Positions 4,282-35,820 of a DNA stretch of 64,000 bases are shown here, piece after piece (the first letter of the stretch is position 1; every line of letters starts with the position of its first letter). This stretch comes from Thermoanaerobaculia bacterium (GTDB taxonomy: Bacteria > Acidobacteriota > Thermoanaerobaculia > UBA5066 > DATFVB01), in contig DATFVB010000073.1 of the NCBI GenBank assembly GCA_035260525.1, positions 1,637-65,636 of the forward strand, in the 5' to 3' direction. The position numbers and the translations under genes were made by a program. Under the pieces are notes generated by a model. It had not been told where the DNA came from, did no database searches, and worked only from the letters and a program-made list of their open reading frames with translations.

Positions 4282-7014
4282 GTGAAACGAACCGCCGGGT
4301 TTCTCGCCTTCTCCGTCCTCGCCGCGTCGGCGGCGACGTTCGCGCAGACTCCCGATCCCCGGGCGGATCACGGGGCCGCCGCGCTGAGGCGATCGCTCCT
4401 CGAGGCGTCCACGACGGCGTCGCTCCTGCAGGTGACCGCGCATCCGGACGACGAGGACGGCGGGCTCCTCACGATGCTCGCCCGCGGCCGCGGCGTTCGC
4501 GTCGGGCTCGTGACGCTCACGCGCGGCGAGGGTGGGCAGAACAAGATCGGACCGGAGCTCTTCGACGCTCTCGGCGTGACCCGAACGGAGGAGCTCCTCG
4601 CCTCGGACCGCTATTACGGCGTCTCCCAGTTCTTCACGCGCGCGGTCGACTACGGATTCTCGAAGACGCTCGCCGAGGCGCTCGCGAAGTGGCGTTTCGC
4701 CGACGCGGACGGCGGACCGGTCGTGGGCGATCTCGTCCGGGTGATCCGCCGTTTCCGTCCCGATGTCCTCGTCGCGCGCTTCTCCGGAACGCGGCGCGAC
4801 GGGCATGCGCACCACGAGGCCTCGTCGATCCTCGCCCGCCGCGCCTTCGAAGAGGCGGGCGACCCTTCGAAGTTCCCGGAGCAGATCCGGGAGGGTCTCC
4901 TCCCGTGGAAGCCGAAGAAGCTCTACGTCGGAATCATCCGCGCCGGCGAGGACTGGACCGTTTCCGAGGACGTCGGCGCCTACGACTCTCTGCTCGGCCT
5001 TTCTTACGCGCAGCTCGCGTGGCAGGGACTGTCGCACCAGCGCACCCAGGGCGTCGGCCAGGTCCAGCCGGATCCCGGCTCCCGGCCCGTCTACTACAAG
5101 CGGATCGACGGAACGCCCGCCGCGGCCGTGCTCGACGTTTCCGGACGCGTCGAGATCCCCTATCACGAGGGAAAAGGCGTTCCCGAGAGCGGGTTCTTCG
5201 ACGGGATCGACACGAGCCTCTCCGGAATCGCGGACCGCCTCGGCGCCGACGAGAGATCGGTGCCTTTCCTGCGGCCGGGGCTCGCCTCCCTCGCCCGCGA
5301 GGTCGGCGCGGCCTCCGGCGCCTTCGACGCGGCGCGACCGGAGAAATGCGCCGAGCCGCTCTCGCGCGCGCTCGCGGCCGCCGACCGGCTCGTCCGGGAC
5401 CTCGAGGGGTCGGCGCTCCCGCCGGCGGAGAAATCGCCGGGGCTCTTCCTCCTCGGCATCAAGCGCGACCAGCTTCGCGGCGCCCTCGACCACGCGCTGT
5501 CGCTGGCGCTCGTCGCGCGGGTCGAGCCGGAAAAGGAGCCGGGCTCCCCGTTCCCGGGCTTCCGGTTCGCCGTGGAGACCGCGCGCGTCGCCGTCCCGGG
5601 CGGAAGCTACCCGATCTCCGTATCGCTTTCGAACCGCTCGTCGGCCGACCTGAAGGTCCTCGGCGCTTCGATCGAGGCCCCGGCCGGGTGGAAGGTCGAT
5701 GCGGTCTCGCCGGCGCCCGCCGACCTTCCCTCGGGGCAGACCGCGCGCGCGCTCTTCCGGGTGACGGTCGCCGCGGACGCTTCGTTCACGGCGCCGTTCT
5801 GGCATCGGGCGTCCGTCGAGGACGCCGTCTATTCCGTCGACGACCCCGCGAAAATCGGCGATCCTCTGCCCGCGTTCCCGCTCCGCGCGCGCGTCCGCTA
5901 TTCCGTCGCCGGAGCGGAGAACGCGATCGAAACGGTCGTCGAGACCCGGACGATCGATCCCCTGCGCGGCGAGGTCGCCCGCGCGCTCGCCGTCGAACCC
6001 GCGCTTTCGATCCGAAACACGCCGCCTCTCGCCGTCGTCCCGCTCGCGCGCGTCGGCCGCGGGAGCGTCCCGCTCGACGTCGAGGTCACCGCCCAGGCGC
6101 CCGGACCGCAGAGCGGACGCGTTTCGCTCGACGTCCCGGCGGGATGGCCGAGACCGGCGGCCCGGACGTTCGCGATCGGCGGCGACGAGACTTCCGCGGC
6201 CGTGCGCTTCGCCCTCGAAGTGCCCGCGGGCACCGGGCCCGGGATCTATCGGGTGGGGGCGGCGGCCGACGGCGCGAGCCGGACGCTCGACTTCATCGAG
6301 CATCCCGACATCGGGCCTTTCTATTTCCTGAAGGCCGCCGAGACGCGCGTCGAGGTGCTCGACCTGCGGCTCCCGGACGGGCTCTCGATCGGCTACGTGC
6401 GCGGCGCCGAGGACTCGATCCCCGAATTCCTCCAGCAGCTCGGGATCCGCGTCCACCTCCTCACCGCCGAGGACCTCGAGAAAGGAAACCTCTCTTCGTA
6501 TCCGACGATCGTGACCGGCCCGCGCGCCTACGACGTCCGCGACGACCTTCGGCGGGCGAACCCGCGCCTTCTCGACTACGTTCGAGCCGGCGGCCGCCTC
6601 GTCGTCCAGTACAACAGCAACACGCGCGCGTTCGACGCGGGGAACTGGTTCCCGCATCCGGCGAAGTTCCCCGACCGGAACGAGAGGGTCACGGTCGAGG
6701 ACTCGCCGGTCGAGATGCTCTCTCCCGAGGACCCGGTCTGGAACCGGCCCAACCGGATCACGCCGCGCGACTTCGACGGCTGGGTGCAGGAGCGGGGCCT
6801 CTATTTCGTCGGCGAGTGGTCCGCCGACTGGAAGCCGCTCCTCTCGATGCACGATCCGGGCGAGCCGCCGCTGCGCGGCGGGCTGCTGACGACCACGCTC
6901 GGCAAAGGCACGTACGTCTTCACCGCGGAATCGTGGTTCCGCGAGCTCCCGGAGGGAGTGCCCGGCGCGATCCGCATCTTCGTCAACCTGATCTCGCCGG
7001 CGACGACGCGTTGA
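4282..7014 (+). CDS. Secreted PIG-L/LmbE-family N-acetylglucosaminyl deacetylase domain protein with C-terminal ThuA/class-I-GATase-like domain
   Basis: Signal peptide MKRTAGFLAFSVLAASAATFAQT. LmbE motif AHPDDE and HAHHEAS. C-terminal block YPTIVTGPRAYDVRDDLRRANPRLLDYVRAGGRLVVQYN. Confidence 0.8.
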   Translation: MKRTAGFLAFSVLAASAATFAQTPDPRADHGAAALRRSLLEASTTASLLQVTAHPDDEDGGLLTMLARGRGVRVGLVTLTRGEGGQNKIGPELFDALGVTRTEELLASDRYYGVSQFFTRAVDYGFSKTLAEALAKWRFADADGGPVVGDLVRVIRRFRPDVLVARFSGTRRDGHAHHEASSILARRAFEEAGDPSKFPEQIREGLLPWKPKKLYVGIIRAGEDWTVSEDVGAYDSLLGLSYAQLAWQGLSHQRTQGVGQVQPDPGSRPVYYKRIDGTPAAAVLDVSGRVEIPYHEGKGVPESGFFDGIDTSLSGIADRLGADERSVPFLRPGLASLAREVGAASGAFDAARPEKCAEPLSRALAAADRLVRDLEGSALPPAEKSPGLFLLGIKRDQLRGALDHALSLALVARVEPEKEPGSPFPGFRFAVETARVAVPGGSYPISVSLSNRSSADLKVLGASIEAPAGWKVDAVSPAPADLPSGQTARALFRVTVAADASFTAPFWHRASVEDAVYSVDDPAKIGDPLPAFPLRARVRYSVAGAENAIETVVETRTIDPLRGEVARALAVEPALSIRNTPPLAVVPLARVGRGSVPLDVEVTAQAPGPQSGRVSLDVPAGWPRPAARTFAIGGDETSAAVRFALEVPAGTGPGIYRVGAAADGASRTLDFIEHPDIGPFYFLKAAETRVEVLDLRLPDGLSIGYVRGAEDSIPEFLQQLGIRVHLLTAEDLEKGNLSSYPTIVTGPRAYDVRDDLRRANPRLLDYVRAGGRLVVQYNSNTRAFDAGNWFPHPAKFPDRNERVTVEDSPVEMLSPEDPVWNRPNRITPRDFDGWVQERGLYFVGEWSADWKPLLSMHDPGEPPLRGGLLTTTLGKGTYVFTAESWFRELPEGVPGAIRIFVNLISPATTR

Positions 7015-8807: not shown

Positions 8808-9593
8808 TCACCCGCGCTTGAAGAACCCGCCCGGCAGCGAGATGCCGCCGTCGATCGTGAGACACGCTCCCGTGACGTAATCGGCCGAGGGGCCGCAGAG
8901 CCAGACGATCGCGCCGGCGACCTCCTCGAGCCGCGCGAGCCGCCGGGCCGGGATCGTCCGCACGAGCCTCTCCTGCGTCGAAGCGTCGGCGAACTGGAGG
9001 TTCTTCGCCGCCCCCTCGGTCGCCATGATCCCGGGAGCGACCGCGTTGACGCGAATGCCGCGGGACCCCCACTCGGCGGCGAGCGTGCGCGTGATCGCGA
9101 GGACGCCGGCCTTGGCGGCCGCCGAGTGCACGACGCCCGGCATTCCGGTTTCGGCGTAGGTCGCGACCACGTTGACCATCGTCCCCCGGCCGCGGGCGAG
9201 CATTCGCCGGCCGACCGACGAGGAGCAGAACCACGTGCCGTGGAGCACGATCTCCACGACCGCGCGGAAGCCGTTCGGCGTGAGCTCTTCCGACGGGATC
9301 AGGAAATTGCCCGCCGCGTTGTTGACGAGGACGCCGATCGGGCCGAGCTCGCGCTCGACCCGCTCGACCGCGCTTTCGACCGCCGCCGGGTCCCGAACGT
9401 CTCCCGTCACCGCGAGGGCGCGTCCCCCGCGCGACCGGATCTCGGCGGCGGCTCCTTCGACGTGCTCGGCCGACCGCGAGACGACCGCGACCGGAAATCC
9501 GGCGTCGGAAAGGGCGAGCGCGGTCGCGCGGCCGAGGCCCGTCCCTCCCCCGGTGACGAGCGCGATCTCCGCGCCCCGATCGCTTCCGCTCAT
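8808..9593 (-). CDS. SDR-family oxidoreductase, 2,4-dienoyl-CoA reductase-like
   Basis: TGGGTGLG Rossmann motif. SAAAKAG segment without the canonical Tyr (HSAAAKAG), as in the DECR subfamily. Confidence 0.85.
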   Translation of the reverse strand: MSGSDRGAEIALVTGGGTGLGRATALALSDAGFPVAVVSRSAEHVEGAAAEIRSRGGRALAVTGDVRDPAAVESAVERVERELGPIGVLVNNAAGNFLIPSEELTPNGFRAVVEIVLHGTWFCSSSVGRRMLARGRGTMVNVVATYAETGMPGVVHSAAAKAGVLAITRTLAAEWGSRGIRVNAVAPGIMATEGAAKNLQFADASTQERLVRTIPARRLARLEEVAGAIVWLCGPSADYVTGACLTIDGGISLPGGFFKRG

Positions 9594-9626
9594 GGCGCCC
9601 TCCTCGGATCCGGCCGCGAGATCATC

Positions 9627-10742
9627 TCACTCTTCGACCTTTCCTTCGGGCGGCGGCGCGAGCTCCGGCAGCCGCCCGGCGCCGATCGCGTCGCGGATCC
9701 GGCGCATCCAGGAAAGGTAGAAGTGGACGTTGTGCATCGAGATGAGCACCGGCGCCGTGATGTCGCTCAGGACGAAGAGATGGCGCAGGTAGGACCGGCT
9801 GTGCCGCCGGCAGACCGGGCAGGCGCACGACGGGTCGAGCGGGCGCCCGTCCTCCCGGAAGCGCGCGTTCTTGATCGCCACGCTCCCCGCCGACGTGTAG
9901 GCGTGCCCCATGCGTCCGTTCCTCGTGGGCAGGACGCAGTCGAAGAGATCGATCCCCGCCCGGACGGCGCCGAGGATGTCCGCCGGCGTGCCGACGCCCA
10001 TGAGGTACCGCGGGCGGCCGGCCGGAAGGCGCGCGGCGGTCGAGCGCGTGATCCGCTCGATTTCCCGCTTCTCTTCGCCGACCGCGACGCCGCCGATCGC
10101 GTAGCCCGCGAAATCGAGCGCGGCGATCTCCTCGGCGGACCTTCGCCGGAGGTCCTCGTGCGTCCCTCCCTGGACGATCCCGAAGAGCCGTCCGGGTCCC
10201 GTCCACGCGCGCCGGCAGCGCTCGGCCCAGCGCGCCGTGAGGGCCACGGCGTCTTCCACCTCCCCGCGGGGGGCCGGGAGCGCGGGGCACACGTCGAGAC
10301 ACATCGCCACGTCGGTCCCGAAAGCGGCCTGGAGCTCCATCGCGAGCTCCGGCGTGAGCATGGCAGCCGCGCCGTCGAGATGCGAGCGGAACCGCACGCC
10401 CTCTTCGGTCACGTCCCGCTGGGTCGCGAGCGACATCACCTGGAAGCCTCCCGAGTCGGTCAGGAACGCCCGCGGCCAGCCGGTGAACCGATGCAGCCCG
10501 CCCGCCCGGCGAATGCCGTCGAGGCCCGGCCGAAGCATCAGGTGGTACGTGTTCGCGAGGATGATCCGGCAGTCCCAGCTCTCGAGGAGGTCGAAGGGGA
10601 CGCCCTTGACGGCGCCGAGGGTCCCGACCGGCATGAACGCGGGCGTCTCGACGGTCGCATGGGAGAGAGAGAGCCGCCCGAGCCGCGCCGAGGAGCCCGC
10701 GTCCGAGGCGTCGATCGCGAAGAAAGTCGCGCGATTTTCCAC
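9627..10742 (-). CDS. tgt: Queuine tRNA-ribosyltransferase
   Basis: VETPAFMPVGT, DSGGFQ and LMGVGTP motifs. Zinc site CACPVCRRHSRSYLRHL. GTG start at 10742. Confidence 0.9.
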   Translation of the reverse strand: MENRATFFAIDASDAGSSARLGRLSLSHATVETPAFMPVGTLGAVKGVPFDLLESWDCRIILANTYHLMLRPGLDGIRRAGGLHRFTGWPRAFLTDSGGFQVMSLATQRDVTEEGVRFRSHLDGAAAMLTPELAMELQAAFGTDVAMCLDVCPALPAPRGEVEDAVALTARWAERCRRAWTGPGRLFGIVQGGTHEDLRRRSAEEIAALDFAGYAIGGVAVGEEKREIERITRSTAARLPAGRPRYLMGVGTPADILGAVRAGIDLFDCVLPTRNGRMGHAYTSAGSVAIKNARFREDGRPLDPSCACPVCRRHSRSYLRHLFVLSDITAPVLISMHNVHFYLSWMRRIRDAIGAGRLPELAPPPEGKVEE

Positions 10743-10838
10743 TCGCGCGGAGCGTAGCACGCGGAATTTTTTCCAAAGGATCCGCGTCCTTGACGGCCCC
10801 GGGGTCGGGTGATACGTTCGGCCCGCTTCGGGGGTGGG

Positions 10839-11159
10839 ATGCCAAATCTCGGAAAAAAATTCGAATGCTTCAATTGCCGGGCGAAGTTCTACGACCTCGG
10901 CAAACCCGAAGCCGTGTGCCCGAAGTGCGGCGCCAACCAGCGCGATGCGCGCGGCGCGGACGAATCGGCCTCGGCGGCGCCGCGGCCGCGGCGGATGGCG
11001 CCGATCGTCGTCGCGCCCGACGAGGTGAGCGATTTCGAAGACCATGGCCACGAGGAAGAGGAAGAGTCGATCGACCACGCCGGGTATCCGGAGGAAGAGT
11101 TCGAAGACGAAGAGCCTCCCCTCGAGACCCACGAACGCGAGGAAGAAGAAGACTTCTGA
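10839..11159 (+). CDS. FYDLN_acid family protein (TIGR02300-like): zinc ribbon plus acidic tail
   Basis: KKFECFNCRAKFYDLGK ... CPKCG, followed by an Asp/Glu-rich C-terminus. ATG at 10839 (the ORF track extends to GTG 10809). Confidence 0.7.
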   Translation: MPNLGKKFECFNCRAKFYDLGKPEAVCPKCGANQRDARGADESASAAPRPRRMAPIVVAPDEVSDFEDHGHEEEEESIDHAGYPEEEFEDEEPPLETHEREEEEDF

Positions 11160-11634
11160 GCGGGCGACCTTCCTCGGCCTCGGAAGCAATCTCGGGAACC
11201 GATTCGCCCACCTGCGGCTCGCCCTGCGCGAGATCGGAGCGATCGCTTCGGTGGTCCGCGTTTCCCCTTTCTTCGAGACCGAGCCCGAAGGCTACTCCGC
11301 GCAGCGCCCCTTCCTGAACGCCGTCGCCGAGATCCGGACGGCGATGCCGGCGGCCGATCTCCTTGCCGCCGTCAAGCGCGTCGAGCGTCGGGGCGGCCGA
11401 ACGCCGACCTTCCGGAACGGGCCGCGCACGATCGACATCGACCTCCTCGACGTGCGGGGCGAGGTGGCTTCCTCCCCGCAGCTCACGCTCCCCCACCCGC
11501 GGCTCCACCGGCGCCGATTCGCCCTCGAGCCGCTCGCGGCGATCGCGCCGCGCTGGCGGCACCCGCTGCTCGGGAAGACCGCCCGCCAGCTCCTGAAAGA
11601 GCTGAACGCCTCCCTCTCCCGCCGGGAGAGGTGA
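11044..11634 (+). CDS. folK: 2-amino-4-hydroxy-6-hydroxymethyldihydropteridine pyrophosphokinase (HPPK)
   Basis: FLGLGSNLGNR, VVRVSPFFETEP, TIDIDLL and LTLPHPRLHRRRFALEPL motifs. The only in-frame ATG (11044) overlaps the upstream gene by 116 nt. The conserved core starts near 11164. Confidence 0.8.
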   Translation: MATRKRKSRSTTPGIRRKSSKTKSLPSRPTNARKKKTSERATFLGLGSNLGNRFAHLRLALREIGAIASVVRVSPFFETEPEGYSAQRPFLNAVAEIRTAMPAADLLAAVKRVERRGGRTPTFRNGPRTIDIDLLDVRGEVASSPQLTLPHPRLHRRRFALEPLAAIAPRWRHPLLGKTARQLLKELNASLSRRER

Positions 11635-11681
11635 CGAGCGGGCGAACGACTGTCCAACGGTGCCTCTCGGCCGGACACGGT

Positions 11682-11801
11682 GAGGCGCGGTCAGACGCGA
11701 GCGAGACGGGATGCGGGCGGGGTCGGCGCGTCCCGAGCCGTACCGGGGCGTACGTCGAGGGCGCGGCGGCCCGGCCCGCGCACCTCTCCGCTCGATGTAT
11801 G
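11682..11801. repeat. GC-rich intergenic repeat element, copy A (about 120 bp)
   Basis: Runs from gaggcgcggtcagacgcgagcgagacgggatgcggg ... cgtaccggggcgtacgtcgagggcgcgg to gctcgatgtatg. It is about 85% identical to the reverse complement of 14428-14544. Confidence 0.7.
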
Positions 11802-11815
11802 ATCCGCGGCCGCCC

Positions 11816-12730
11816 CTACAAGGCGCCCCAGGCCTGGAGATCCCGTTGCGCATCGCCCTGCACCTTCAGGTCCTCGACGAGGTGATCCGGATGCGGCGTC
11901 GCCGCGAGAACCGCCTTCAGCAGGTCGACCGCGGGGGCGCGGTCCTCCGAGTACTCGTGGATCGCCTCGGCCAGGAACACCTTGTTCACGAGGTTGTCGG
12001 GAGCGAGGCGGACCGCCTCGCGCAGGTTCTTGATCGCCTCCTCCCGGTCGATCCACCCGGTGAAGAAGATGACCTTCGGCGAGACCGCGTGGAGGCGTCC
12101 GAGCACGCGGTAGCCTCCGGCCTCTTCGAGGTTCGGGGCGATCGCGATGACGGTTCGCGCGTCATCCCGGATCTTCGCCGCGGCCCCCTGGCGGACCGCC
12201 GACATCTTCCCGTGCACGAGCGACCACTGCCCCCACGTCACCGCGGTCCAGAAGAACGTCTCTCCCGCGGTCGCGTCTCCGGCGAGCGCCTTGCCGACGT
12301 CGGCCGGCTCCAGCGACGACGCCCGTCCGCCCGCCTTCGCGGCCGCCCGCTCGCGCTGCGCCGCGATCGCGTCATCGGCGATCGGCATCGCCCGTTCGTA
12401 CAGCGCCGCTTTCTGGGAAGCGCCGAGGCCGGTATATTCCGCCTTGAAATACGTGGCGCGGAGATATTTCCACTTCGCGTCGGCGTTGCTTCGGCTCTTC
12501 CGGATCGCCGCCGCATAGTCGTCGAGCGCCGCGTCGATCTCGCGCGGATCCGCGATTTCACCGTGCCGCCCGTCGGAGCGATGGAGGTAGTGCGCGTCCC
12601 CCGACGCCATCGAATCGGTGACCCGCATCGCCTGCATCGCGCGCTCCTGCGGAGACGGGAGGGTCGGCTGCGAAGGGGGCGTGGTCGTGTGGACCTGGGC
12701 GAGGACCATGAACAAGAGCGCGAATCCCAT
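11816..12730 (-). CDS. Secreted hypothetical protein, possibly TPR-like
   Basis: Signal peptide MGFALLFMVLAQVHT. Helical repeat-like composition. No catalytic motif recognised. Confidence 0.55.
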   Translation of the reverse strand: MGFALLFMVLAQVHTTTPPSQPTLPSPQERAMQAMRVTDSMASGDAHYLHRSDGRHGEIADPREIDAALDDYAAAIRKSRSNADAKWKYLRATYFKAEYTGLGASQKAALYERAMPIADDAIAAQRERAAAKAGGRASSLEPADVGKALAGDATAGETFFWTAVTWGQWSLVHGKMSAVRQGAAAKIRDDARTVIAIAPNLEEAGGYRVLGRLHAVSPKVIFFTGWIDREEAIKNLREAVRLAPDNLVNKVFLAEAIHEYSEDRAPAVDLLKAVLAATPHPDHLVEDLKVQGDAQRDLQAWGAL

Positions 12731-12796
12731 CGGTTTTCCTCCCGCGTCGGCCGATTATAGGCGCACGAGCCTGCTAGACTCGGGCGGGAGCTCCGC

Positions 12797-13093
12797 ATGA
12801 ACGATCAAAAACCGGTCGAGCTGAAGATGACGATCGACGAGCCGACCTCCGCGGGTCACTACGTGAACTTCGCCAACATTCTCCACAACCCGACGGAATT
12901 CGTCGTCGACTTCGGCCGGATCGTCCCCGGCCGCCCCGACGTGAAGATCCTGTCGCGGATCCTGACGACGCCCGTCCACGCCAAGCAGCTGCTCAAGGCG
13001 CTCGCGCAGAACATCGCGCTCTACGAACAGCAGTTCGGGCCGATCCCGGAGGTGGCGACTCCGATGCCGCCCGCCGACGCGCCGACCAACTAG
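12797..13093 (+). CDS. DUF3467-family small protein
   Basis: GHYVNFANILHNPTEFVVDFGR matches the DUF3467 signature. RBS-like gggag lies upstream of the ATG. Confidence 0.65.
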   Translation: MNDQKPVELKMTIDEPTSAGHYVNFANILHNPTEFVVDFGRIVPGRPDVKILSRILTTPVHAKQLLKALAQNIALYEQQFGPIPEVATPMPPADAPTN

Positions 13094-13138
13094 TGGCCCG
13101 CGCGGCGACCTGTCCCGCCGAAGCCTTGGCGAAGGCGG

Positions 13139-13325
13139 ATACATCGAGCCGGACGGGCGCGTGCCGCCCCCTCTGCAAGGCCGTTCAGTTGATGCAATGA
13201 CGAGGCGCGGCCAGACGTCTGGAAGACGGGTCCGGGGTGTCTGCCGGAGGCGAAGGCGTACTGAGACGTACGTCGAGCCGCCGGCAGGCACCCCGGACCC
13301 GTATAACGGCGCGTATGGTCCGCGC
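13139..13325. repeat. GC-rich intergenic repeat element, copy B (composite: short inverted fragment plus full direct copy with a 20-bp stem)
   Basis: atacatcgagccggacgggcgc is the inverted end. gaggcgcggccagacg ... gggtccggggtgtctgccgg ... gcgtactgagacgtacgtcgagccg ... ccggcaggcaccccggaccc is the direct copy, with a near-perfect 20-bp inverted repeat around the conserved core. Confidence 0.65.
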
Positions 13326-13328
13326 CCG

Positions 13329-14408
13329 TTAACGAGTGAGCGTTCCGCCTCCGAGCACCACATCCCCGTCGTAGAACACGGCCGCCTGCCCCGGAGCGAT
13401 CGCCGAGATCTCCTCGTGGAAGAGAATTCGCGCGCGATCCTCTCGGGCGGGCACGACGGTCGCCGCGACTTCGCGTCCCCGATGGCGAACCCGGACGGAA
13501 GCCTCGACGGGACTCTCCGGAGGGTCGATCGACGTCCATCGCACCTCGCCGACTTCCGCCTCCAGCGCCAGCAAATCCTCCCGCGACCCGAGGCGCACGT
13601 CTCCCGTCGCCGCGTCGATCGCGGTGACGTACCGGCGCTCCCCGAACGCGGCGCCGAGTCCGCGCCGCTGCCCGACCGTGAAGCGATGGACGCCGCCGTG
13701 CTCCCCGATCGCCCCGCCGCCTTCCGCGACGAACCGGCCGTGCGTCGGGAGCGCGATCCCCATCGCCGGCGCCTGCCGCTCGACGAAGGACGCGGCGCTC
13801 TGCGTGGCCGGCACGAAGCAGATCTCCATCGATTCCGCTTTTTCGGCGGTCGGAAGCCCGGCGCGGCGCGCCATGGCGCGGACCCGGTCCTTCGTGAGAT
13901 GCCCGACCGGAAAGAGTGCGCGGGAGAGCGGCTCCCGGCCCAGGTCCCAGAGGAAGTACGACTGGTCCTTCGCCGCGTCCGCGCCCCTGCGCAGCACGGG
14001 GCGGCCCGAGGAATCGATCCCGGTCCTCGCGTAGTGCCCCGTGGCGACGGCCTCGCAGCCGAACTCCGACGCCCGCCGGGCCAGAGCGGCGAACTTCACG
14101 TGGGTGTTGCAGCGCGAGCAGGGAATCGGCGTCGACCCCCGCGCGTACGAACGGACGAACGGCTCGACGACCGTGCGCCGGAACTCCTCCTCGAGGTCGA
14201 GCACGTAATGCGGAATGTCGAGCCTCCATGCGACCCGGCGCGCGTCGCCGAGGTCGTCCAGCGTGCAGCACCGCCCGCTCCTCCCCGCCTCGGAGGAGTG
14301 ATCCCAGAGCTGCATCGAGAGCCCCACCACCTCGTGCCCCGCCTCCTTCAGGAGCAGGGCGGCGACGGAGGAATCGACGCCGCCGGACATCGCCACCGCA
14401 ATCCGCAT
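13329..14408 (-). CDS. mnmA: tRNA-specific 2-thiouridylase
   Basis: ATG at 14408. [19 protein letters not shown]-loop. CxxC... and DQSYFL motifs. Confidence 0.9.
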
Positions 14409-14427
14409 TTGCCTATGGTAGCGCGGC

Positions 14428-14544
14428 CATACATCGAGCGAATACGGGCGCGGGCCCGGCCACCGCGCCGTCGACGTACGCCCCGTACGCCTCGGGACAC
14501 GGTGGCCGGGCCCGCATCCCGTCTCGCCCGCGTCTGACCGCGCC
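14428..14544. repeat. GC-rich intergenic repeat element, copy C1 (inverted relative to copy A)
   Basis: catacatcgagcg ... cgggcccggccaccg [loop with cgtcgacgtacgccccgtacg] cggtggccgggcccg ... cgtctgaccgcgcc. The internal stem is a perfect 15-bp inverted repeat. Confidence 0.7.
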
Positions 14545-14611
14545 CCGACGACCTGCGCGGGCGGGAAAACGAGAACGAGACCTGTCGTTCCGAATACCGA
14601 CGAGGCCGGGC

Positions 14612-14721
14612 GAGGCGCGAGCCCGACGGGATGTGGGCCGGTCGAGAGATCCCGAGGCATACCGGCGGCGTATGTCGCAGGGTCTCGCGGACGGCACGCG
14701 CCCGTCCGGCTCGATGCATCG
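14612..14721. repeat. GC-rich intergenic repeat element, copy C2 (direct orientation, head-to-head with C1)
   Basis: gaggcgcgagcccgacgggatgtgggccgg ... ggcggcgtatgtcgcagg ... ggctcgatgcatcg. Confidence 0.6.
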
Positions 14722-14736
14722 ATCGGCCGGCAGCTC

Positions 14737-15366
14737 CTAGGCGGACTCCGTGACGATGAGCATCAACGTGCTCCCGCCCACCTCGAACTCTCCGTACTGG
14801 TCGAGCGGTGCAGATTCGACGCGCTCCCCCCCGAAGTAGGTGCCGTTCGTGGACTCCAGGTCGAAAACCGTCACCGAGTCGTCCTCGACCTCGATCGCCG
14901 CGTGCGAGCGGGAGATCTCCGCGTCCGAGAGGACGATGTCGGACCCCGCGCGTCCGACGACGACGCGGGGTTTCTCGATCGCAAACGTCTTTCCCGCGTC
15001 GGGGCCCGAGATCACGGCGAGAGACAGTTTCTTGCCGGCGGGGAGCCGGAGAGCCGCCGGGTGCGGCGCCGCCTTCGCGTGTGCGCGGGTCGACTCTCCC
15101 GCGTGTTTCCGGTGGTCGAACGCCTCCGGACGCCGCGTGAAGGTCGTCTCGGTGCCGACGAGCGGCGGCGGGTTGATCGGCGCATCGGCGCGGAAGCCGG
15201 AGGCCGCCGCCGGCGCCGGAGACGGGGGCGGGTCCGGCGCCGCCGGGTTCGCGATTTCGAAGATCGTCTCGCATTTCGTGCAGCGGATCTTCTTCGCCGG
15301 CTTCCCCCCGAAGCGCGCTTCCTCGTAGCGGTACTTTGCCGCACACGCCGGACAGGAGACGATCAA
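14737..15366 (-). CDS. FHA-domain protein with N-terminal MJ0042-type zinc ribbon
   Basis: TTG start at 15366, preceded by GGGGGAG. N-terminus (M)[15 protein letters not shown] ... [14 protein letters not shown]-terminal FHA: [42 protein letters not shown]. Confidence 0.75.
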
Positions 15367-15440
15367 CGCGCTCCCCCGTCCCCCGAGACCTCCGGTGAAT
15401 TCATGGATGGCGCCATTTTGCCACCGGCCGGCGCCGGCGA

Positions 15441-16565
15441 TCAAGATCGATCCGTGCGGAGGATCCGTCGGAGCGCGGAAACGACGGCCTCGACCTGAGC
15501 GAGATCGTTGCCCGGGCCGAACGAAAACCGGACCGTGCTCCTCGCTTCCTCCGACGAGGCGCCGAGCGCGAGAATCGCCGCCGACGGGGCGACCGAACCG
15601 GACGAGCAGGCCGATCCGACCGAAACGGCGATTCCGTCGAGATCGAGGGCGATCGCGATCCCTTCGCCGGAGCGGCCCGGAAATGCCGCCGCGGAAGTGT
15701 TCCCGACCCGGAGCGCCGCCTTTCCCCAGATGCGCACGGCAGGCCATTCGCGCCCCAGAGCCTCCTCGAATGCGTCGCGGAGGCCGGCGACTCTCTCCCG
15801 CTCGTGGGCCGACTCCTCGCGGCACAGCCGCGCGGCTTCCCCGAAACCCGCGATCCCGGCGACGTTCTCCGTGCCGCCCCGGCGCCGGCGCTCCTGGCCG
15901 CCGCCGGGAAAGAGCGCCGGCAGCTCCACGCCCCGACGCACCCACAGCGCTCCGGTTCCTTTCGGCCCGCCGATCTTGTGAGCCGAGACCGAGATCAGGT
16001 CGGCGCCGCTCGCGGCGCCGACGTCGATCTTACCGGCCGCCGCGACCGCGTCCGTGTGGAAGAGCGCGCCGGCATTCCGCGCCCGGCCGGCGAGGATCGC
16101 GACCGGGAAGATTCCACCGTACTCGTTGTTGGCCGCCATGACCGAGACGAGCGCGACGCGGTCGTCGATCCACCGTTCTGCGGCGCCGAGGTCGATCTCA
16201 CCGGACGGAAGGACCGGCAGGACCCGGCGCTCGAAACCCTCCCGCTCGAGAGCGCGGGCGGGCTCCGAGACGGCCGGGTGCTCGACGGAGGACACGGCGA
16301 CGACGCGGCGGGCCGACGCCCGGGCCGAGTAGAGGGCGATCGCGTCGGCTTCGGTGCCCCCCGACGTGAACACGACCTCTTCCGGCTCGGAAGCCCCGAG
16401 GAGGAGGGCGACCTGCTCGCGCGCTTCCTCGACCGCCCGTCTCGCGCGGCGGCCCGCCGAGTGCACCGACGACGGATTTCCCCAGATTTCATCCAGGAAG
16501 GGCTCCATCGCGGCCTTCACCCGGGAATCGACCGGGGTCGTCGCGTTGTAGTCGGCGTAGATCAT
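15441..16565 (-). CDS. iscS: Cysteine desulfurase (class V aminotransferase, IscS/NifS family)
   Basis: MIYADYNATTP N-terminus. SAHKIGGPKG contains the PLP lysine. SVGSACSSG contains the active Cys. Confidence 0.85.
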   Translation of the reverse strand: MIYADYNATTPVDSRVKAAMEPFLDEIWGNPSSVHSAGRRARRAVEEAREQVALLLGASEPEEVVFTSGGTEADAIALYSARASARRVVAVSSVEHPAVSEPARALEREGFERRVLPVLPSGEIDLGAAERWIDDRVALVSVMAANNEYGGIFPVAILAGRARNAGALFHTDAVAAAGKIDVGAASGADLISVSAHKIGGPKGTGALWVRRGVELPALFPGGGQERRRRGGTENVAGIAGFGEAARLCREESAHERERVAGLRDAFEEALGREWPAVRIWGKAALRVGNTSAAAFPGRSGEGIAIALDLDGIAVSVGSACSSGSVAPSAAILALGASSEEARSTVRFSFGPGNDLAQVEAVVSALRRILRTDRS

Positions 16566-16669
16566 CGCGCCGATTCTAGGCCGGCTCCGCATCGGCCGAT
16601 CCGGGGATCCTGAAGAGAGGAGAAAGTCGGAATGGCCCGAGCTTCCCGGAGGTTAGGATCGATGGCAAA

Positions 16670-19600
16670 GTGAAGCGCATGAACCGGCGGAGGATCGCTC
16701 TTCTCACCCTCGCGGTCGGCGTTGCCGCCGGCGCAACGCGGGCGGTCCGCGCCGCCGAGGAGCCGCCGCGCAACGAGTCGGTGACGCCCGCTCCGATGTC
16801 GAAGGAGGAGCGCGAATGGGCGACGGAGATCGTCGCGCCGCTCCTCACGGCCGACGAGAAGAAGCTCTATCTCGGTCTGGCGAGTCCCGCCGAACGGACG
16901 TCCTTCCGCGACGAGTTCTGGGCCATCCGCGAACGGGACGGGTTGCGTCCGCCGTTCGGCCCCGGATTCAAGAATCTGTACACGGAGCGCCTCGAGGCCG
17001 CAAACGAGAAATACGGCGGCTGGAAAACCGACGCCGGGCGAATCGTCCTCGCGCTGGGAGCGCCCGCCGACGTCTACACCCTGGATTGCCCGAACGACTT
17101 CCGACCGATCGAGATCTGGACGATGGAGCCCGCCACGAGGATGGGCACTCCGGAAAAACTCGTCTTCTACCGCGACTTCGAGAGCGGCCCGCTGAAGCTC
17201 TGGTCCCCGATCCTGGGACCGGACGTCCTGCTGAGCCCGACCATCAGCCACCAGACTCCGGACGCGGCGTCCGGGAGGCGTGAGCTCGAGAGCCTCTACG
17301 GCGCACGCTGCGGGCCGCAGGCGACGATGGTGACCTGCAAGGATGAATGCAACGTCCTGTGGCCGGTCCTGATTTCGATGGAAGACCGCGGCGACCTCGG
17401 CGAGGCGCTCCGCGTCGAGAAGCTCGCCGTGTTCCCTCCGCCCCCGGAAGGAGACTGGAGCCGATGGCGCTCGCGGTTCGTCGGCTCTCCGGCGCCCACT
17501 GCCGTCCCGGCCGCCCGGGCGGAGCCCCCCGCCCCCGCCTCGCGGAAGCTCTCCCGGGCCGACCGGAAACAGCTCGAGTCGAAGCTCCCCGAGCGGTATC
17601 GGGAATGGCTCGACGATGTGAGCCTCATCATCACCGAACGGGAGCGGGACGTCTTCCTCCAGGTCGGCGACGACGTGGAGCGGGACAAGTTCATCGAGGA
17701 GTTCTGGCGGCGGCGGTCGGTCGACAAGGACGGCATCCGGACGAATTTTCGCGAAGTGTTCCGCGCGCGGGTCGAGTACGCCAAGGAGCACTTCAAGAAC
17801 CTGGGATCCGATGCCGCGAAGGTCTACATCCTGAACGGGCCTCCCGATGCCCTGATTCCGGTCAACTGCCCGGAGGTCTTCGTTCCGATCCAGATCTGGT
17901 ACTACGAGCGGCTCGAGGCGCTGAAGAACAAGGTCTACCTGGTCTTCTACAAGGCGTACGGGATGGGCGACTGGAAGCTCTGGCTGCCGATCGACGGCAT
18001 ACAGAAGCTCGGGCTGAACTCGATCGCCGTGGACATGCGCGAGGCGGAACAGAGCTGCTTCGACGCGCAGAATCTGCAGGAGGCGATCTCGTATACGACG
18101 ACCATCCTCGGCCCCGGCATATCGGGCATGGCCGAGGCGGAGAAGATGTTCGCCCGGCCGCCCGTCGAGACGGAGGGGATCGACCGCTTCCTCGGGCTCA
18201 CGACGCAGGTCTCCGCCGCCGCCGCGCCCCTCCCGATCGAGAAGAGCGTGATCTTTCCCGAAGAGCGCGACAGCAAGATCGCATGCGACGTGTCGCTCCT
18301 CCTTCCGCGGAAGGACCTCGCCCTGAGAGACCTGGGCGACCAGAAATTCTACGACGTCGACGTCGTGGGCGAGATCGTGCAGAACGACCGGATGCTCGAC
18401 AATTTCAAGTACCGGTTCGACATCCCGGTCGACGAGGTCTCGGGCGACCAGCTGCCGCTGACGCTGCGCCGCTATCTGTATCCGGGCGACTACGAGATCC
18501 GGGTGAAGGCCGCCGATGCGAACCGGAAGGCGGAAGGACGCTTCGCCGAAGCCCTCCGGGTCCCCGAGCAGCCTCAGGCGCCGCCGCCGGTCCTCGCCGC
18601 GGCCGCGGCCGCCCGCAAGAGCGAGGCACCCCCGGCCGACTTCCGCCCGTCGTCGATCTCCATCCTCCCTCCCGTCCGCGAAATCCTCACGGGTCTCCAG
18701 CGGTTCGAGACGAAAGCCGCCGAAGGGATCGTGGCCGTCGACTTCTACCTCGACGGCACGAAGATGCTGACCCGCACGAAGGGGCCGTTTCAGGCCGACC
18801 TCAACCTCGGGCCGCTCCCGCGGCGGCACGAGATCCGCGTCGTCGCCTACGACGCGGGCGGACGTTCCGTCGGCGAGGACGAGCTCCACGTCAACGAGGG
18901 AAGCGAGTCCTTCCGCGTGAAGATTCTCTCTCCGCGGCGAGGCACCAACGCTTCCGGGCCGACGGCGGTCGTCGCCGACGCGACCGCGCCCGAGGGACGC
19001 TCGATCGCGAAGATGGAGTTCTATTCGAACGAGACGAAGGTCGCGACCCTCTACCAGCCGCCGTGGCAGCAGGTGGTCCCGTTCCGGAAGAGCGGATCGC
19101 TCGGTTACGTGCGCGTCGTCGGCACGCTCGACGACGGCCTCGTGGCGGAGGACGTCCGCTACGTCAACGCGCCGCCGTACATCAGCGAGGTCAACGTCGA
19201 CGCCGTCGAGCTCTACACGACGGTCACCCAGGGGAACCGTCCGGTGGACGGCCTGACCCAGGCGAACTTCCAGATCTTCGAGGACGGGAAACCCCAGACC
19301 GTCGCTCAGTTCGAGCACGTGACGAACCTGCCGCTGACCGTCGGCGTCGCGATCGACACCTCGGCCTCGATGATCGAGAACCTTCCGGACGCCGAGAAAG
19401 CCGCCCTCGAGTTCATCGATCAGACGATCGGCGAGAAGGATCGCGGCTTCACGATGTCGTTCGACGATTCGCCCTACACGCTCTGCCGCCTCACGGGAAA
19501 CCGGGAGCGGCTGGACCGCTCCTTCGCCGGCCTCCGCGCGGAGGGATCGACCGCGCTCTACGACGCGATCGTGTACGCGCTCTACCAGTTCTCGGGCGTG

Positions 19601-19978
19601 AAGGGGAAGAAAGCCCTCGTCGTCCTCACCGACGGGAAAGACACGACCTCGAAGTACGACTTCGACACCCTCCTCGACTACGTGAAAAAGGCGGGCGTGG
19701 CGGTCTACGGGATCGGTTTGAACGTCTCGAAGGCCGAGCTCGAGGTCAAATCGAAGCTCAACCGCCTCGCCGAGGCTTCCGGCGGGACGACGTTCTACGT
19801 CGACAGCACGAAGAGTCTCAAGAGCGTCTACCAGCAGATCAACAACGAGCTGCGGACCCAGTATCTCCTGACCTACTACTCCACCAATCCGAACCCCGAC
19901 AACAAGTGGCGAAAGGTGGACGTGAAGGTCACGCCGAAGAATCTCACCGCGCGCACCATTTCGGGTTATTACAGCTAG
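16670..19978 (+). CDS. Large secreted GWxTD-domain protein with C-terminal von Willebrand factor A domain (Acidobacteria-type)
   Basis: Signal peptide. KYGGWKTDAGRIVLALGAPAD is the GWxTD motif, with a second degenerate copy. C-terminal VWA with MIDAS DTSASM and LTDGKDT. An alternative ATG lies at 16679. Confidence 0.85.
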   Translation: MKRMNRRRIALLTLAVGVAAGATRAVRAAEEPPRNESVTPAPMSKEEREWATEIVAPLLTADEKKLYLGLASPAERTSFRDEFWAIRERDGLRPPFGPGFKNLYTERLEAANEKYGGWKTDAGRIVLALGAPADVYTLDCPNDFRPIEIWTMEPATRMGTPEKLVFYRDFESGPLKLWSPILGPDVLLSPTISHQTPDAASGRRELESLYGARCGPQATMVTCKDECNVLWPVLISMEDRGDLGEALRVEKLAVFPPPPEGDWSRWRSRFVGSPAPTAVPAARAEPPAPASRKLSRADRKQLESKLPERYREWLDDVSLIITERERDVFLQVGDDVERDKFIEEFWRRRSVDKDGIRTNFREVFRARVEYAKEHFKNLGSDAAKVYILNGPPDALIPVNCPEVFVPIQIWYYERLEALKNKVYLVFYKAYGMGDWKLWLPIDGIQKLGLNSIAVDMREAEQSCFDAQNLQEAISYTTTILGPGISGMAEAEKMFARPPVETEGIDRFLGLTTQVSAAAAPLPIEKSVIFPEERDSKIACDVSLLLPRKDLALRDLGDQKFYDVDVVGEIVQNDRMLDNFKYRFDIPVDEVSGDQLPLTLRRYLYPGDYEIRVKAADANRKAEGRFAEALRVPEQPQAPPPVLAAAAAARKSEAPPADFRPSSISILPPVREILTGLQRFETKAAEGIVAVDFYLDGTKMLTRTKGPFQADLNLGPLPRRHEIRVVAYDAGGRSVGEDELHVNEGSESFRVKILSPRRGTNASGPTAVVADATAPEGRSIAKMEFYSNETKVATLYQPPWQQVVPFRKSGSLGYVRVVGTLDDGLVAEDVRYVNAPPYISEVNVDAVELYTTVTQGNRPVDGLTQANFQIFEDGKPQTVAQFEHVTNLPLTVGVAIDTSASMIENLPDAEKAALEFIDQTIGEKDRGFTMSFDDSPYTLCRLTGNRERLDRSFAGLRAEGSTALYDAIVYALYQFSGVKGKKALVVLTDGKDTTSKYDFDTLLDYVKKAGVAVYGIGLNVSKAELEVKSKLNRLAEASGGTTFYVDSTKSLKSVYQQINNELRTQYLLTYYSTNPNPDNKWRKVDVKVTPKNLTARTISGYYS

Positions 19979-20194
19979 AAGGCCGCCGTTGGAAGCGGCA
20001 GTCGCCGAGTTGAAGCGGACGCTCCGCGCCGCTTAACTCGGCGCCCAGGAATCTCACCGCGCGCACCATTTCGGGTTATTACAGCTAGAAGGCCGCCGTT
20101 GGAAGTGGCAGTCGCCGAGTTGAAGTGCTCCGCGCCGCTTAACTCGGCGACGAAGAATCCCATCGCCAGGACCATATCGGGGTACTACTCCTAA
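19940..20194. repeat. Tandem direct repeat: about 2.4 copies of a 109-bp unit containing the gene's 3' end and a hairpin
   Basis: Unit is gaatctcaccgcgcgcaccatttcgggttattacagctagaaggccgccgttggaagcggcagtcgccgagttgaagcggacgctccgcgccgcttaactcggcg. Copy 2 (20049-20152) carries a 4-bp deletion. Copy 3 (20152-20194) is diverged and ends in TAA. Confidence 0.85.
20028..20044 (+). terminator. Hairpin cgccgagttgaagcgg/ccgcttaactcggcg downstream of the GWxTD gene; no T-tract, and duplicated in the tandem repeat
   Basis: 15-bp near-perfect inverted repeat spanning 19999-20044, beginning 21 nt after the TAG stop. Confidence 0.35.
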
Positions 20195-20361: not shown

Positions 20362-20505
20362 CGCATCGCGGAGAGCTTTCGCCGAAGGGTATCCAGCGCG
20401 GAGCCGAAGGCTCAGCCGCGAAGCGGCCGGCGCGCACTCCGCCGCGCGCGTCGATCGCCACGCACGCGAGTGCGCGAGCCACCGAGGCGAAAGCTCCGCG
20501 ATGCG
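20362..20505. repeat. Nested palindromic element: outer 20-bp stem, inner 8-bp stem and a small hairpin
   Basis: Outer stem cgcatcgcggagagctttcgcc (20362-20383) pairs with ggcgaaagctccgcgatgcg (20486-20505). Inner stem gcgcactc (20432-20439) pairs with gagtgcgc (20468-20475). Small hairpin gccgcgaagcggc at 20415-20427. Confidence 0.5.
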
Positions 20506-20658
20506 GGAGCGGGAGCGAGGGCGTTGCGGGGTGACGGCGGGCGCGGTCGAGCCGCTCGTTCCGCGAGCCGCGCGGCCGTCACGCGCCCCCGGTCCCCGAG
20601 CCAGCTCCCGCGCCGGGCACGCGCCCGGCCGGCTCGATGCATCGCCGCGTCTGCTCCC

Positions 20659-35527: not shown

Positions 35528-35820
35528 TCGCGACGCTCGCGGAGCTCGGATCGCGATTGCTCCCGCCGCGCGGGCGTTCCGCTCGATGGCTCGCGCACTG
35601 GCGTGCGCGGCGATCGGCGCGCTCGGCGCTGACGCGCCGGCCGCTCCGCGGCCGCGACCGGCGTCGCGCGCTGGATACCCTTCACGGAACGCTCTCCGCG
35701 CGTCGACTCTCGCGGCTCGGGCTCCCGCCCTCGACCACTTCGGCGCCCCACGGGAGCCGGGTCCCGCGGGCGTCGTTCCGGCGACATGAACTCAGGGCCG
35801 ACTTTTTCGTATCCTCGGAC

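Follow-up and report, generated by a model that had tools for sequence, protein, structure and literature searches.

The 64-kb stretch of DNA analysed here, referred to as the window, comes from an uncultured member of the Acidobacteriota, the host lineage of the repeat described below, and the closest named relatives of the MnmA protein encoded in it are found in Thermoanaerobaculia. Between its genes a GC-rich DNA repeat of about 131 bases is present in six copies, two of them broken and four full, and each full copy folds as one hairpin. The genes and repeat copies concerned are the following, with the bounds of the four full copies taken from the covariance model:

11044-11634, plus strand: folK (HPPK), the head-side neighbour of copy A
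11681-11812, plus strand: copy A, full-length hairpin element
11816-12730, minus strand: gene of 304 aa without a Pfam match, whose stop touches the tail of copy A
12797-13093, plus strand: DUF3467 gene
13116-13139, plus strand: small hairpin module CCGCCGAAGCCTTGGCGAAGGCGG, 24 nt, fused to the adjacent truncated copy
13138-13170, minus strand: tail fragment of the element, 33 nt, model positions ~86-119
13201-13330, plus strand: copy B, full-length, of a divergent subfamily with differing lower stems
13329-14408, minus strand: mnmA (tRNA 2-thiouridylase), whose stop touches the tail of copy B and whose start lies just past the tail of copy C1
14416-14547, minus strand: copy C1, full-length
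14601-14732, plus strand: copy C2, full-length
14737-15360, minus strand: FHA/zinc-ribbon gene, start approximate, whose stop touches the tail of copy C2
20606-20649, plus strand: tail fragment still able to form a short hairpin
20659-21560, minus strand: era GTPase, start approximate, its long ORF carrying MMR_HSR1 and KH_2 domains within the 300 C-terminal aa

The database gene call for MnmA of the window is a longer version of 428 aa (P0001), while orthologs of the FHA/zinc-ribbon gene are called at 204-206 aa and carry Zn_ribbon and FHA domains. A scan for tRNA and tmRNA genes found none. Repeats of 110 nt are also present at 19.9-20.2 kb, where TRF returned no rows.

A model derived from the four full copies recovered these at E = 4e-31 to 1e-27 and detected just two fragments in addition across the window. 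All copies listed in the preliminary description exist, with boundaries that are shifted by the covariance model, and the fifth fragment that it placed near era corresponds to 20606-20649, with its tail toward the era stop. The stretch 13139-13325, previously taken as one copy, turned out to be a composite, in which a tail fragment of 33 nt in inverted orientation (13138-13170), fused to the 24-nt module, precedes the full copy B; this had been overlooked, as had the strand asymmetry and the stop-adjacent orientation discussed below. The tail of the 33-nt fragment is oriented toward the stop of the DUF3467 gene (13091-13093), and the module CCGCCGAAGCCTTGGCGAAGGCGG substitutes for the outer arm in other copies, with fixed junctions. 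Copy B shares its subfamily with the copies L005:7573-7704 and L002:2929-3060. Copies C1 and C2 are arranged head-to-head, as had been proposed, with a spacer of 53 nt (14548-14600) between the model bounds.

In regard to its structure, each full copy is a single imperfect hairpin of ~54 bp. Its lower stems make up the conserved ends (GA(R)GGCGCGG...GACGGGATGCGG and CGCGCCCGT..GCTCGATGYATCGCCGCGCC), conservation extends to the apical stem-loop (GGCGTAC-loop-GTACGTC), and the middle stem is variable, falling into 28 clusters, with the pairing preserved through compensatory changes. The stems quoted in the preliminary description are correct, the 20-bp stem of copy B containing one G·T pair and the 15-bp stem of copy C1 being exact; the palindromic core described there is present and is better understood as the apical stem-loop of one long hairpin. 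The lower arms of ~35 nt represent imperfect inverted repeats, in the manner of the terminal inverted repeats of MITEs. When a self-palindromic REP unit was looked for at each end, the arms showed no more than weak internal palindromes, and the minimum-energy fold was always the single long hairpin.

Covariation, which had been suggested from the window copies alone, was found on alignments at a level far above that of the controls. Among 26 copies, 91.8% of the positions concerned are paired and changes on both sides occur at 35 of the 54 pairs; among 128 distinct copies the values are 92.2% and 44 of 54, matched by none of 500 shuffles, with slid controls reaching 28-45%. Pairs at the apex are almost invariant (125-127 of 128 copies), although the pattern used in the metagenome search did not require them. 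Covariation within a DNA palindrome can also stem from template switching between its arms or from their gene conversion, with no selection on RNA involved.

The two strands of the element do not fold equally well. For the window copies, RNA folding energies are -96, -106, -110 and -83 kcal/mol on the better strand and -77, -87, -85 and -71 kcal/mol on the other, the better strand departing from shuffled sequences by z = -4.3 to -12.1. In all but one of 181 distinct copies (180) the advantage lies with the same strand (mean -97.4 vs -84.2 kcal/mol), because of conserved mismatches, bulges and G·U pairs, with 593 G·U cells in the alignment as compared to 75 A·C cells. Since such asymmetry is likewise seen with DNA parameters, RNA and single-stranded DNA are not separable by folding.

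The element extends well beyond the window, as would be expected of the dispersed family of REP/BIME-like or Correia-MITE-like hairpins that the preliminary description had envisaged, and which both architecture and distribution support. It is present in two Acidobacteriota MAGs at 14 loci without synteny to the window, and on at least 120 contigs from soil, rhizosphere and wetland metagenomes. From each MAG 56-64 kb were sampled, which contain at least 12 copies in one MAG and at least 14 in the other, at loci spread across a 3.84-Mb chromosome. Neither of the two outcomes that the preliminary description would have taken as a refutation, a lack of further copies and a lack of covariation, was thus observed. 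The nhmmer search gave 239 matches, 199 of them full length, and the distinct full-length copies number 181. Dispersed copies have unrelated housekeeping genes as neighbours, and subfamilies and mosaic variants exist. Copies that lie close together are paired head-to-head or in tandem, and never tail-to-tail. Truncated copies lack either the 5' or the 3' part, and a truncation bias of the retroelement type, restricted to the 5' end, was therefore rejected. A genome-scan match in L012 (Kapaibacterium) is due to chance and is not recovered by the covariance model. Many copies are located at contig ends, so that the element explains assembly breaks in soil metagenomes.

The position of the element relative to genes follows a rule. 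In 108 of 162 copies, the 3' tail lies between -10 and +25 nt from the stop codon of a gene converging on it, while the head is found beside a co-directional stop in only one of 160 (Fisher p = 5e-43 for tail vs head), and the rule is upheld in L136 by independent database gene calls. In the window, the tail of copy A stops 3 nt short of the CTA stop (11816-11818) of the converging 304-aa gene, with the folK stop (11632-11634) 46 nt distant on the head side; the final bases of copy B overlap the mnmA stop codon (TTA, 13329-13331); the tail of copy C2 stops 4 nt short of the CTA stop (14737-14739) of the converging FHA/zinc-ribbon gene; and the fragment 20606-20649 stops 9 nt before the TCA stop (20659-20661) of the converging era. 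Copy C1 breaks the rule, as it runs in the same direction as mnmA and has its tail end 7 nt upstream of the start codon of that gene (ATG, 14408-14406). Copies A and B are placed between convergent genes, and C1 and C2 between a pair of genes on the same strand. Since the tail abuts the stop of a gene reading toward the element, the better-folding strand is represented in the mRNA of that gene by its reverse complement.

The stop codon next to the element is TAG in 61% of cases, against a background of 28% (p = 2e-12). Of 47 copies beside which no gene was detected, 12 also have CTA at this offset, vs 2% by chance. On the gene strand, NTAG is found 2-5 nt ahead of the stem in 57 of 150 copies, with GTAG (25) and CTAG (17) followed by ATAG and TTAG (11 each) among the tetramers in this location. 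The last codon of the adjacent genes, in which insertion into coding sequence could have left an AT bias, does not differ from the background. Orientation according to the direction of replication was rejected, since single 8-kb loci hold both orientations.

Gene order is conserved around orthologous sites in relatives, where elements were found to be gained, lost, truncated or replaced, further cases being known besides those given here. Orthologs of copy A (L136:6416-6547, at the same gene end) and of copy C2 (L136:3765-3897) belong to other subfamilies, and L136 is devoid of copies B and C1. Copy C1 is also missing from L138, in which the C2 site holds a tail-only remnant; L138 and L139 retain tail remnants only, the arrangement of the tail fragment 13138-13170 being kept in L139, and in L140 element-free intergenic gaps of 13 and 2 nt are present. 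The near-identical strains that were compared revealed no insertion or excision of this family, the sole recent polymorphism detected involving a different repeat. The near-identical strain L119 has an insertion of 98 nt inside the tail of copy C1. The strand asymmetry, the stop-adjacent position and orientation, the enrichment of TAG and the turnover at orthologous sites are all newly found here.

Several searches were directed at features expected of mobile or regulatory sequences. No direct repeat indicating a target-site duplication was seen in the flanks of 26 to 170 copies, filled and empty sites being too diverged to show one, and no fixed insertion junction was observed. The RAYT/IS200 motif Y...NPxxxG is absent from six-frame translations of 0.91 Mb around the copies, no transposase was seen between inverted copy pairs, where the genes resemble ordinary housekeeping genes by eye, and no parent insertion sequence with matching ends was present among pairs 0.4-2.5 kb apart. 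Rfam gave no match at the gathering threshold in the whole window, and at E up to 10 (11400-15000) returned only microRNA and snoRNA matches at chance level. A canonical terminator, with a hairpin and a U-tract, was not predicted at any copy in 11000-15500, and the flanks of the copies show mild enrichment in A or T. No promoter-like site was found, and the region upstream of the head is unconserved except for a TCAGTT motif in 13% of copies. A gene for an independent small RNA, the alternative named in the preliminary description, is thus possible but has neither an Rfam match nor a conserved promoter in its favour.

Taken together, these sequences represent a new family of an already known kind of repeat, small, structured and probably mobile. 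Our favoured explanation, which we hold to be likely, is that they are non-coding hairpin repeats of ~131 nt of Acidobacteriota, similar to REPINs, REPs and MITEs, that spread as non-autonomous units and are retained as hairpins at gene ends. Under this explanation, the elements would be spreading now, or would have spread formerly, in the way of REPINs, REPs and MITEs, moved by what is probably a strand-specific enzyme, encoded elsewhere, that acts on the folded single strand. Their retention at gene ends could follow from the hairpin serving as the 3'-end structure of the gene, where it may stop transcription without a U-tract, form a barrier against 3' exonucleases, or both, while the tail end would often also provide a TAG stop in reverse complement. 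Counting against the predicted terminator or stabiliser role are the lack of a U-tract and the presence of the weaker-folding strand in the transcript of the adjacent gene, where simple selection for a hairpin in the mRNA would have favoured the other strand. It is conceivable, albeit unlikely, that the family belongs instead to an insertion system other than REP/RAYT, equally strand-specific, that homes to the few nucleotides directly behind stop codons with an orientation fixed by the gene. The hairpin would then be the substrate, bringing its own reverse-complement TAG and repeatedly overwriting copies resident at the same gene ends, and the tail half would later be domesticated as a terminator. 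If so, the better fold of the strand opposite to the mRNA and the strict junction at the stop would reflect insertion chemistry and not RNA function.

That the better fold falls on the same strand in 180 of 181 copies, and that G·U pairs are conserved at fixed positions, could alternatively point to a family of functional structured RNAs, transcribed in the direction of the 3' end of the neighbouring gene and acting as terminators or insulators that halt antisense or convergent transcription shortly before the coding region is reached, or as cis-antisense regulators. The better strand does run geneward, the hairpin terminates exactly at the stop codon, and in convergent pairs such as those around copies A and B it falls within the 3' UTR of the gene on the head side. 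We regard this as rather improbable, since the gene at the head side is on the same strand in about 60 of 139 copies, leaving no convergent transcription to stop; the unconserved head upstream region, with TCAGTT in 13% of copies and nothing resembling a promoter, the equal asymmetry under DNA parameters and the lack of an Rfam family speak in the same direction. Non-mobile hairpin-only terminators, selected for termination and both spread and kept alike by recombination and gene conversion from one gene end to another, would account for a different set of observations. Elements at orthologous sites are better conserved than the genes beside them, with 97.7% for the elements of L036 and L110 as against 84-88% for the flanking genes; those of L003 and L074 have identical lower stems, middle stems are exchanged between subfamilies at one site, recombinant copies occur (e.g., L005:231-360), and stop-adjacent tails outlive the remainder of the element. 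Gene conversion nevertheless requires a resident copy and leaves unexplained both the first arrival at dozens of unrelated gene ends and the empty orthologous sites with gaps of 2-13 nt, and a symmetric terminator would need no strict single orientation, so that this explanation also appears unlikely.

Two further possibilities carry far less weight. Integron attC-like recombination sites, which function as a folded single strand with extrahelical bases and a variable centre, are alike in form, being imperfect palindromes of ~130 nt with conserved ends and bulges, a variable centre and strand asymmetry. That the repeats are such sites is nonetheless highly improbable, given that the attC cores GTTRRRY/RYYYAAC are absent from the consensus, no integrase is found nearby, and the copies stand in both directions beside housekeeping genes, unlike a one-way cassette array. 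A local segmental duplication limited to the 3-kb region, in agreement with the location of all window copies inside 9 kb, is refuted by hundreds of copies elsewhere beside unrelated genes and can be practically dismissed.

The family adds a well-defined structured repeat to the Acidobacteriota, where none seems to have been described, with a covariance model and more than 180 copies available, and is useful for marking gene ends and for tracing how strains and lineages are related. The rules governing it, namely a single orientation, a stop-adjacent position, an excess of TAG, replacement at the same site and a tail half that outlasts the rest, are unusually clean, and it is for this reason well suited for studying the site choice of REP/REPIN-like elements and their retention by the host as terminators.

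Among known systems, IS200/IS605-derived palindrome-associated elements share with this family strand-specific hairpins, no need of terminal inverted repeats, the lack of target duplication and one end set against a short target. They differ in that their left and right ends each form a hairpin of their own, their target is a fixed tetra- or pentanucleotide and their orientation is determined by the replication fork, whereas here orientation follows the adjacent gene and both orientations occur in single 8-kb loci. ERIC/IRU (127 bp), YPAL and Correia/NEMIS-type MITEs are comparable in size, imperfect palindromy, intergenic co-transcribed location and orientation-dependent RNA structure, but the present family is found in a different phylum and has no sequence relationship to them, no target-site duplication and no recognisable parent insertion sequence. 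Likewise, REPs of the GTAG- and CGTC-tagged superfamilies lie within less than 20 bp of the 3' ends of ORFs, between genes that converge or read in the same direction, contain G-T pairs in their stems, occur predominantly as head-to-head dimers (PMC3733652), and carry a TAG-bearing tetranucleotide just outside the stem, which between a quarter and a third of the copies show here on one of the strands. REPs are, however, 20-40 nt long with stems of 5-13 bp, as opposed to a single hairpin of ~54 bp, and the GTAG-like tag of this family is inconstant and its offset not fixed. In the REPIN/RAYT system of Pseudomonas and Enterobacteria (PMC3116915), extragenic units of ~100-130 nt likewise form one long ssDNA or RNA hairpin, with two highly conserved ends, a less conserved middle or spacer showing frequent compensatory changes, many dispersed copies, long persistence at fixed sites and head-to-head clusters. 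In contrast to REPINs, this family showed no RAYT motif in the 0.91 Mb around its copies, conserves the apex as well, and has ends that are not obviously self-palindromic REPs; and while REPINs are described as random in extragenic space, the elements presented here abut stop codons in one orientation.

The four full copies of the hairpin repeat (A, B, C1 and C2) in the window, whose G+C content is 70.8%, were recovered alike by repeat finding, BLAST and a profile of the four copies (nhmmer E = 4e-31 to 1e-27), which confirms the preliminary description of the repeats. Beyond them, just two fragments matched in 64 kb by nhmmer, one being the fifth fragment already described downstream of era. 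The interval 13139-13325 had been taken for a single copy; it is composite, with full copy B coming after an inverted tail fragment to which a small hairpin of 24 nt, CCGCCGAAGCCTTGGCGAAGGCGG (13116-13139), is fused. Copies (covariance-model bounds), fragments (nhmmer matches) and neighbouring genes are:

9627-11189, minus strand, TGT
11044-11634, plus strand, folK/HPPK
11681-11812, plus strand, copy A
11816-12730, minus strand, unassigned 304-aa gene
12797-13093, plus strand, DUF3467 gene
13138-13170, minus strand, tail fragment, DUF3467 side
13201-13330, plus strand, copy B
13329-14408, minus strand, mnmA
14416-14547, minus strand, copy C1
14601-14732, plus strand, copy C2
14737 to about 15360, minus strand, FHA/zinc-ribbon gene
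20608-20646, plus strand, tail fragment, era side
stop at 20659, minus strand, era

According to folding, every copy forms one long imperfect hairpin, and the palindromic core noted earlier is its apical stem-loop, GGCGTAC-(CGGGGC)-GTACGTC, conserved in the aligned copies. Their lower stems are conserved too, down to the irregularities: a G/A mismatch, a C/C mismatch, a bulged A and G.U pairs all keep their positions. The middle stem of 16-20 bp is wholly different between copies, with pairing kept; the middle stems form 28 clusters, the two large ones having 57 and 30 members. Here, sense denotes the better-folding strand, and head and tail denote its 5′ and 3′ ends, respectively. As RNA, the sense strands of A, B, C1 and C2 reach -96.1, -105.9, -109.7 and -83.4 kcal/mol (z = -4.3 to -12.1 vs. 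shuffles), and the complementary strands -77.0, -86.5, -85.4 and -71.0. DNA folding parameters give the same asymmetry. Of 181 copies, 180 have the more stable fold on the sense strand (mean -97.4 vs. -84.2 kcal/mol). In the alignment, G.U cells on this strand number 593 vs. 75 A.C cells.

With 26 copies on the covariance model, 91.8% of cells were paired and 35 of 54 pairs had changes on both sides; for 128 distinct metagenome copies these values were 92.2% and 44 of 54. In the latter set, 872 compensatory cells were found vs. 278 expected, a value reached in 0 of 500 shuffles, and slid-alignment controls gave 28-45% pairing, all on an alignment that had been fitted to the model. The flank covariation originally reported is thus upheld, although template switching can likewise make the two arms of a DNA palindrome change together. 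Apex pairs are almost invariant (125-127 of 128), and the metagenome search pattern was built on the two lower arms only, leaving the apex free.

The alternative that the copies represent only a local segmental duplication is refuted by their dispersal in MAGs and metagenomes. A three-block pattern, run against one-genome-per-species contigs, revealed two MAGs of uncultured Acidobacteriota, OY970224.1 (a 3.84-Mb chromosome) and CAWCDE01, with 14 true loci between them. These loci hold 22 copies, often 2-3 per 8 kb, and share neither genes nor DNA with the window except for the repeat. A further hit (L012) was a chance match rejected by the covariance model. Metagenomes of soil, rhizosphere and wetland yielded at least 120 contigs with both lower arms. 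Two of these, L037 and L119, match window 9030-15454 at 99.8-100% identity, and the organism of the window therefore lives in those samples. Over all DNA collected, nhmmer gave at least 239 matches, at least 199 of them full length, with at least 181 distinct full-length sequences, so the expected copies elsewhere do exist, at many unrelated loci. Since many metagenome copies (L016-L135) lie no more than about 150 nt from a contig end, short-read assemblies of these soil Acidobacteriota seem to be interrupted at the repeat.

The tail lies at -10 to +25 nt from the stop codon of a converging ORF (high-GC3 ORFs reading toward the tail) in 108 of 162 evaluable copies, most such stops falling -2 to +4 nt from the model end, while the head is equally near a co-directional stop in 1 of 160 (Fisher p = 5e-43). 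Database gene calls, independent of our ORF finder, agree in the related contig L136, where stops 6412 and 3768 meet elements 6416-6547 and 3765-3897, respectively. In the window, A, B and C2 obey the rule, as do the two fragments: the one at era adjoins the stop directly, and at DUF3467 the small hairpin lies between fragment and stop; C1 is the exception, its tail facing the mnmA start. The head-side neighbour is a same-strand gene in about 60 copies and a convergent gene in about 79, at a median of 140-190 nt. Given such a variable head-side neighbour, the element belongs with the gene at its tail, and the mRNA of that gene bears the weaker, antisense hairpin. Copies lying close together are paired head-to-head (17 pairs within 500 nt, including C1/C2, as first described) or in tandem, and none tail-to-tail. 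Replication direction can be rejected as setting orientation, because both orientations occur inside single 8-kb loci.

TAG makes up 61% of tail-adjoining stops, compared with 28% of the stops of the remaining genes on this DNA (p = 2e-12). Offsets of TAG after the GATGYAT motif peak at +11/12, +14 and +7, with TGA and TAA spread out. CTA stands at those offsets in 12 of 47 copies where no converging gene was detected (chance, 2%), so the tail end ...CCGCGCC-NGC-TA often itself supplies TAG in reverse complement. In adjoining genes the third base of the last codon shows no AT excess over background genes.

Turnover could be followed at orthologous sites in relatives with 69-83% MnmA identity and the same gene order. 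The conserved order (window 9627-20000; L136, L138, L139, L140) is GWxTD/VWA - aminotransferase - FHA/Zn-ribbon - mnmA - DUF3467 - 304 aa - HPPK - FYDLN_acid - TGT - SDR, and named proteins at 62-65% identity come from Thermoanaerobaculia MAGs, which places the organism near that group. In L136 (MnmA 79%), sites A and C2 hold full copies of other subfamilies whose tails abut the same stops; this relative lacks B and C1. L138 (77%) keeps about 35 nt of tail only, after the FHA stop; in L139 (83%) the mnmA stop is followed by a mini-hairpin with an internal deletion, and the DUF3467 site shows the same tail-plus-small-hairpin remnant as the window; L140 (69%) carries no element, its intergenic gaps measuring 13 and 2 nt. 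At other loci, L003 and L074 share a site at which the lower stems are identical and the middle stem is swapped, elements in L036/L110 are 97.7% identical vs. 84-88% for flanks, L026 is full where L054 keeps the tail only, and L002 is empty where L130 and L069 carry the element. Gain and loss of copies therefore occur, together with erosion that starts at the head and replacement at the same site; the stop-codon-adjoining half persists longest. No recent insertion or excision of the family was caught between near-identical strains.

Recombinant copies also exist (e.g., L005:231-360). In a sizeable variant class, a module of about 50 nt ending in the small hairpin takes the place of the outer 5′ arm, and its inverse can follow the tail, making the architecture mosaic, as in BIMEs. 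The 24-nt small hairpin was also seen at L006:1-16, L008:5156-5171, L013:3289-3304 and in about 15 metagenome copies, only fused to truncated big-hairpin copies, with junctions that are fixed at |ACGGGAT (5′) and GATGYAT| (3′), and often preceded by another conserved hairpin, GCAGCAAGcaccCTTGCTGC-CTCGAT.

Other repeats are present as well. A second, unrelated family of about 140 nt occupies 20372-20520 (plus) and 35540-35690 (minus), 75-80% identical to each other. At L119:4115-4212, the C1 tail contains a 98-nt relative of this family's core, with a 3-nt AAT duplication; as L119 is elsewhere 99.95-100% identical to the window, this segment is a recent insertion/deletion polymorphism between near-identical strains. 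At 19911-20193, direct repeats recurring about every 110 nt straddle the stop (19978) of a 1102-aa GWxTD/Big_7/VWA gene; 84 nt are 96% identical between 19932-20015 and 20042-20125, a third copy is weaker, and Tandem Repeats Finder reported nothing there.

Rfam gave nothing at gathering score and only chance-level matches at E up to 10, and a tRNA scan gave none. The RAYT/IS200 motif was absent from six-frame translations of 0.91 Mb and no transposase was found; genes between inverted copy pairs resemble TrpS, CoA-transferase, NUDIX protein, PHP protein, RarA and similar. Upstream of the head, sequence is unconserved apart from TCAGTT, 16-17 nt away in 23 of 174 copies (13% vs. 0.6% background), e.g., at 13176-13181 before copy B, which may be a leader or cleavage-site-like sequence in some subfamilies. 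Neither promoter-like nor U-tract terminator sites were found at the copies in 11000-15500. Tails and mini-hairpins retained at stops, with no other terminators nearby, suggest that the host may use them as gene-end hairpins. The most interesting features are the better folding of the strand opposite the tail-side mRNA and the near-absolute orientation rule, which leave room for a strand-specific mechanism aimed at gene ends.

No constant junction was found in the copy flanks, and no target duplication either; classical MITEs are expected to show the latter, and its absence sets the family apart from them. Membership in REP/RAYT proper cannot be claimed, given a transposase search of 0.91 Mb, below genome scale, and a G before TAG in 25 of 64, with a REP-type GTAG tag being possible. 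Published hallmarks of REP/REPIN elements (PMC3733652, PMC3116915), and of ERIC-like MITEs, are the architecture and dispersal seen here, proximity to ORF 3′ ends, G-T pairing, head-to-head pairs and compensatory changes. Because these are present, we read the repeats as a new family of the REP/REPIN/ERIC-like MITE kind, in support of the initial REP/BIME- or MITE-like interpretation.
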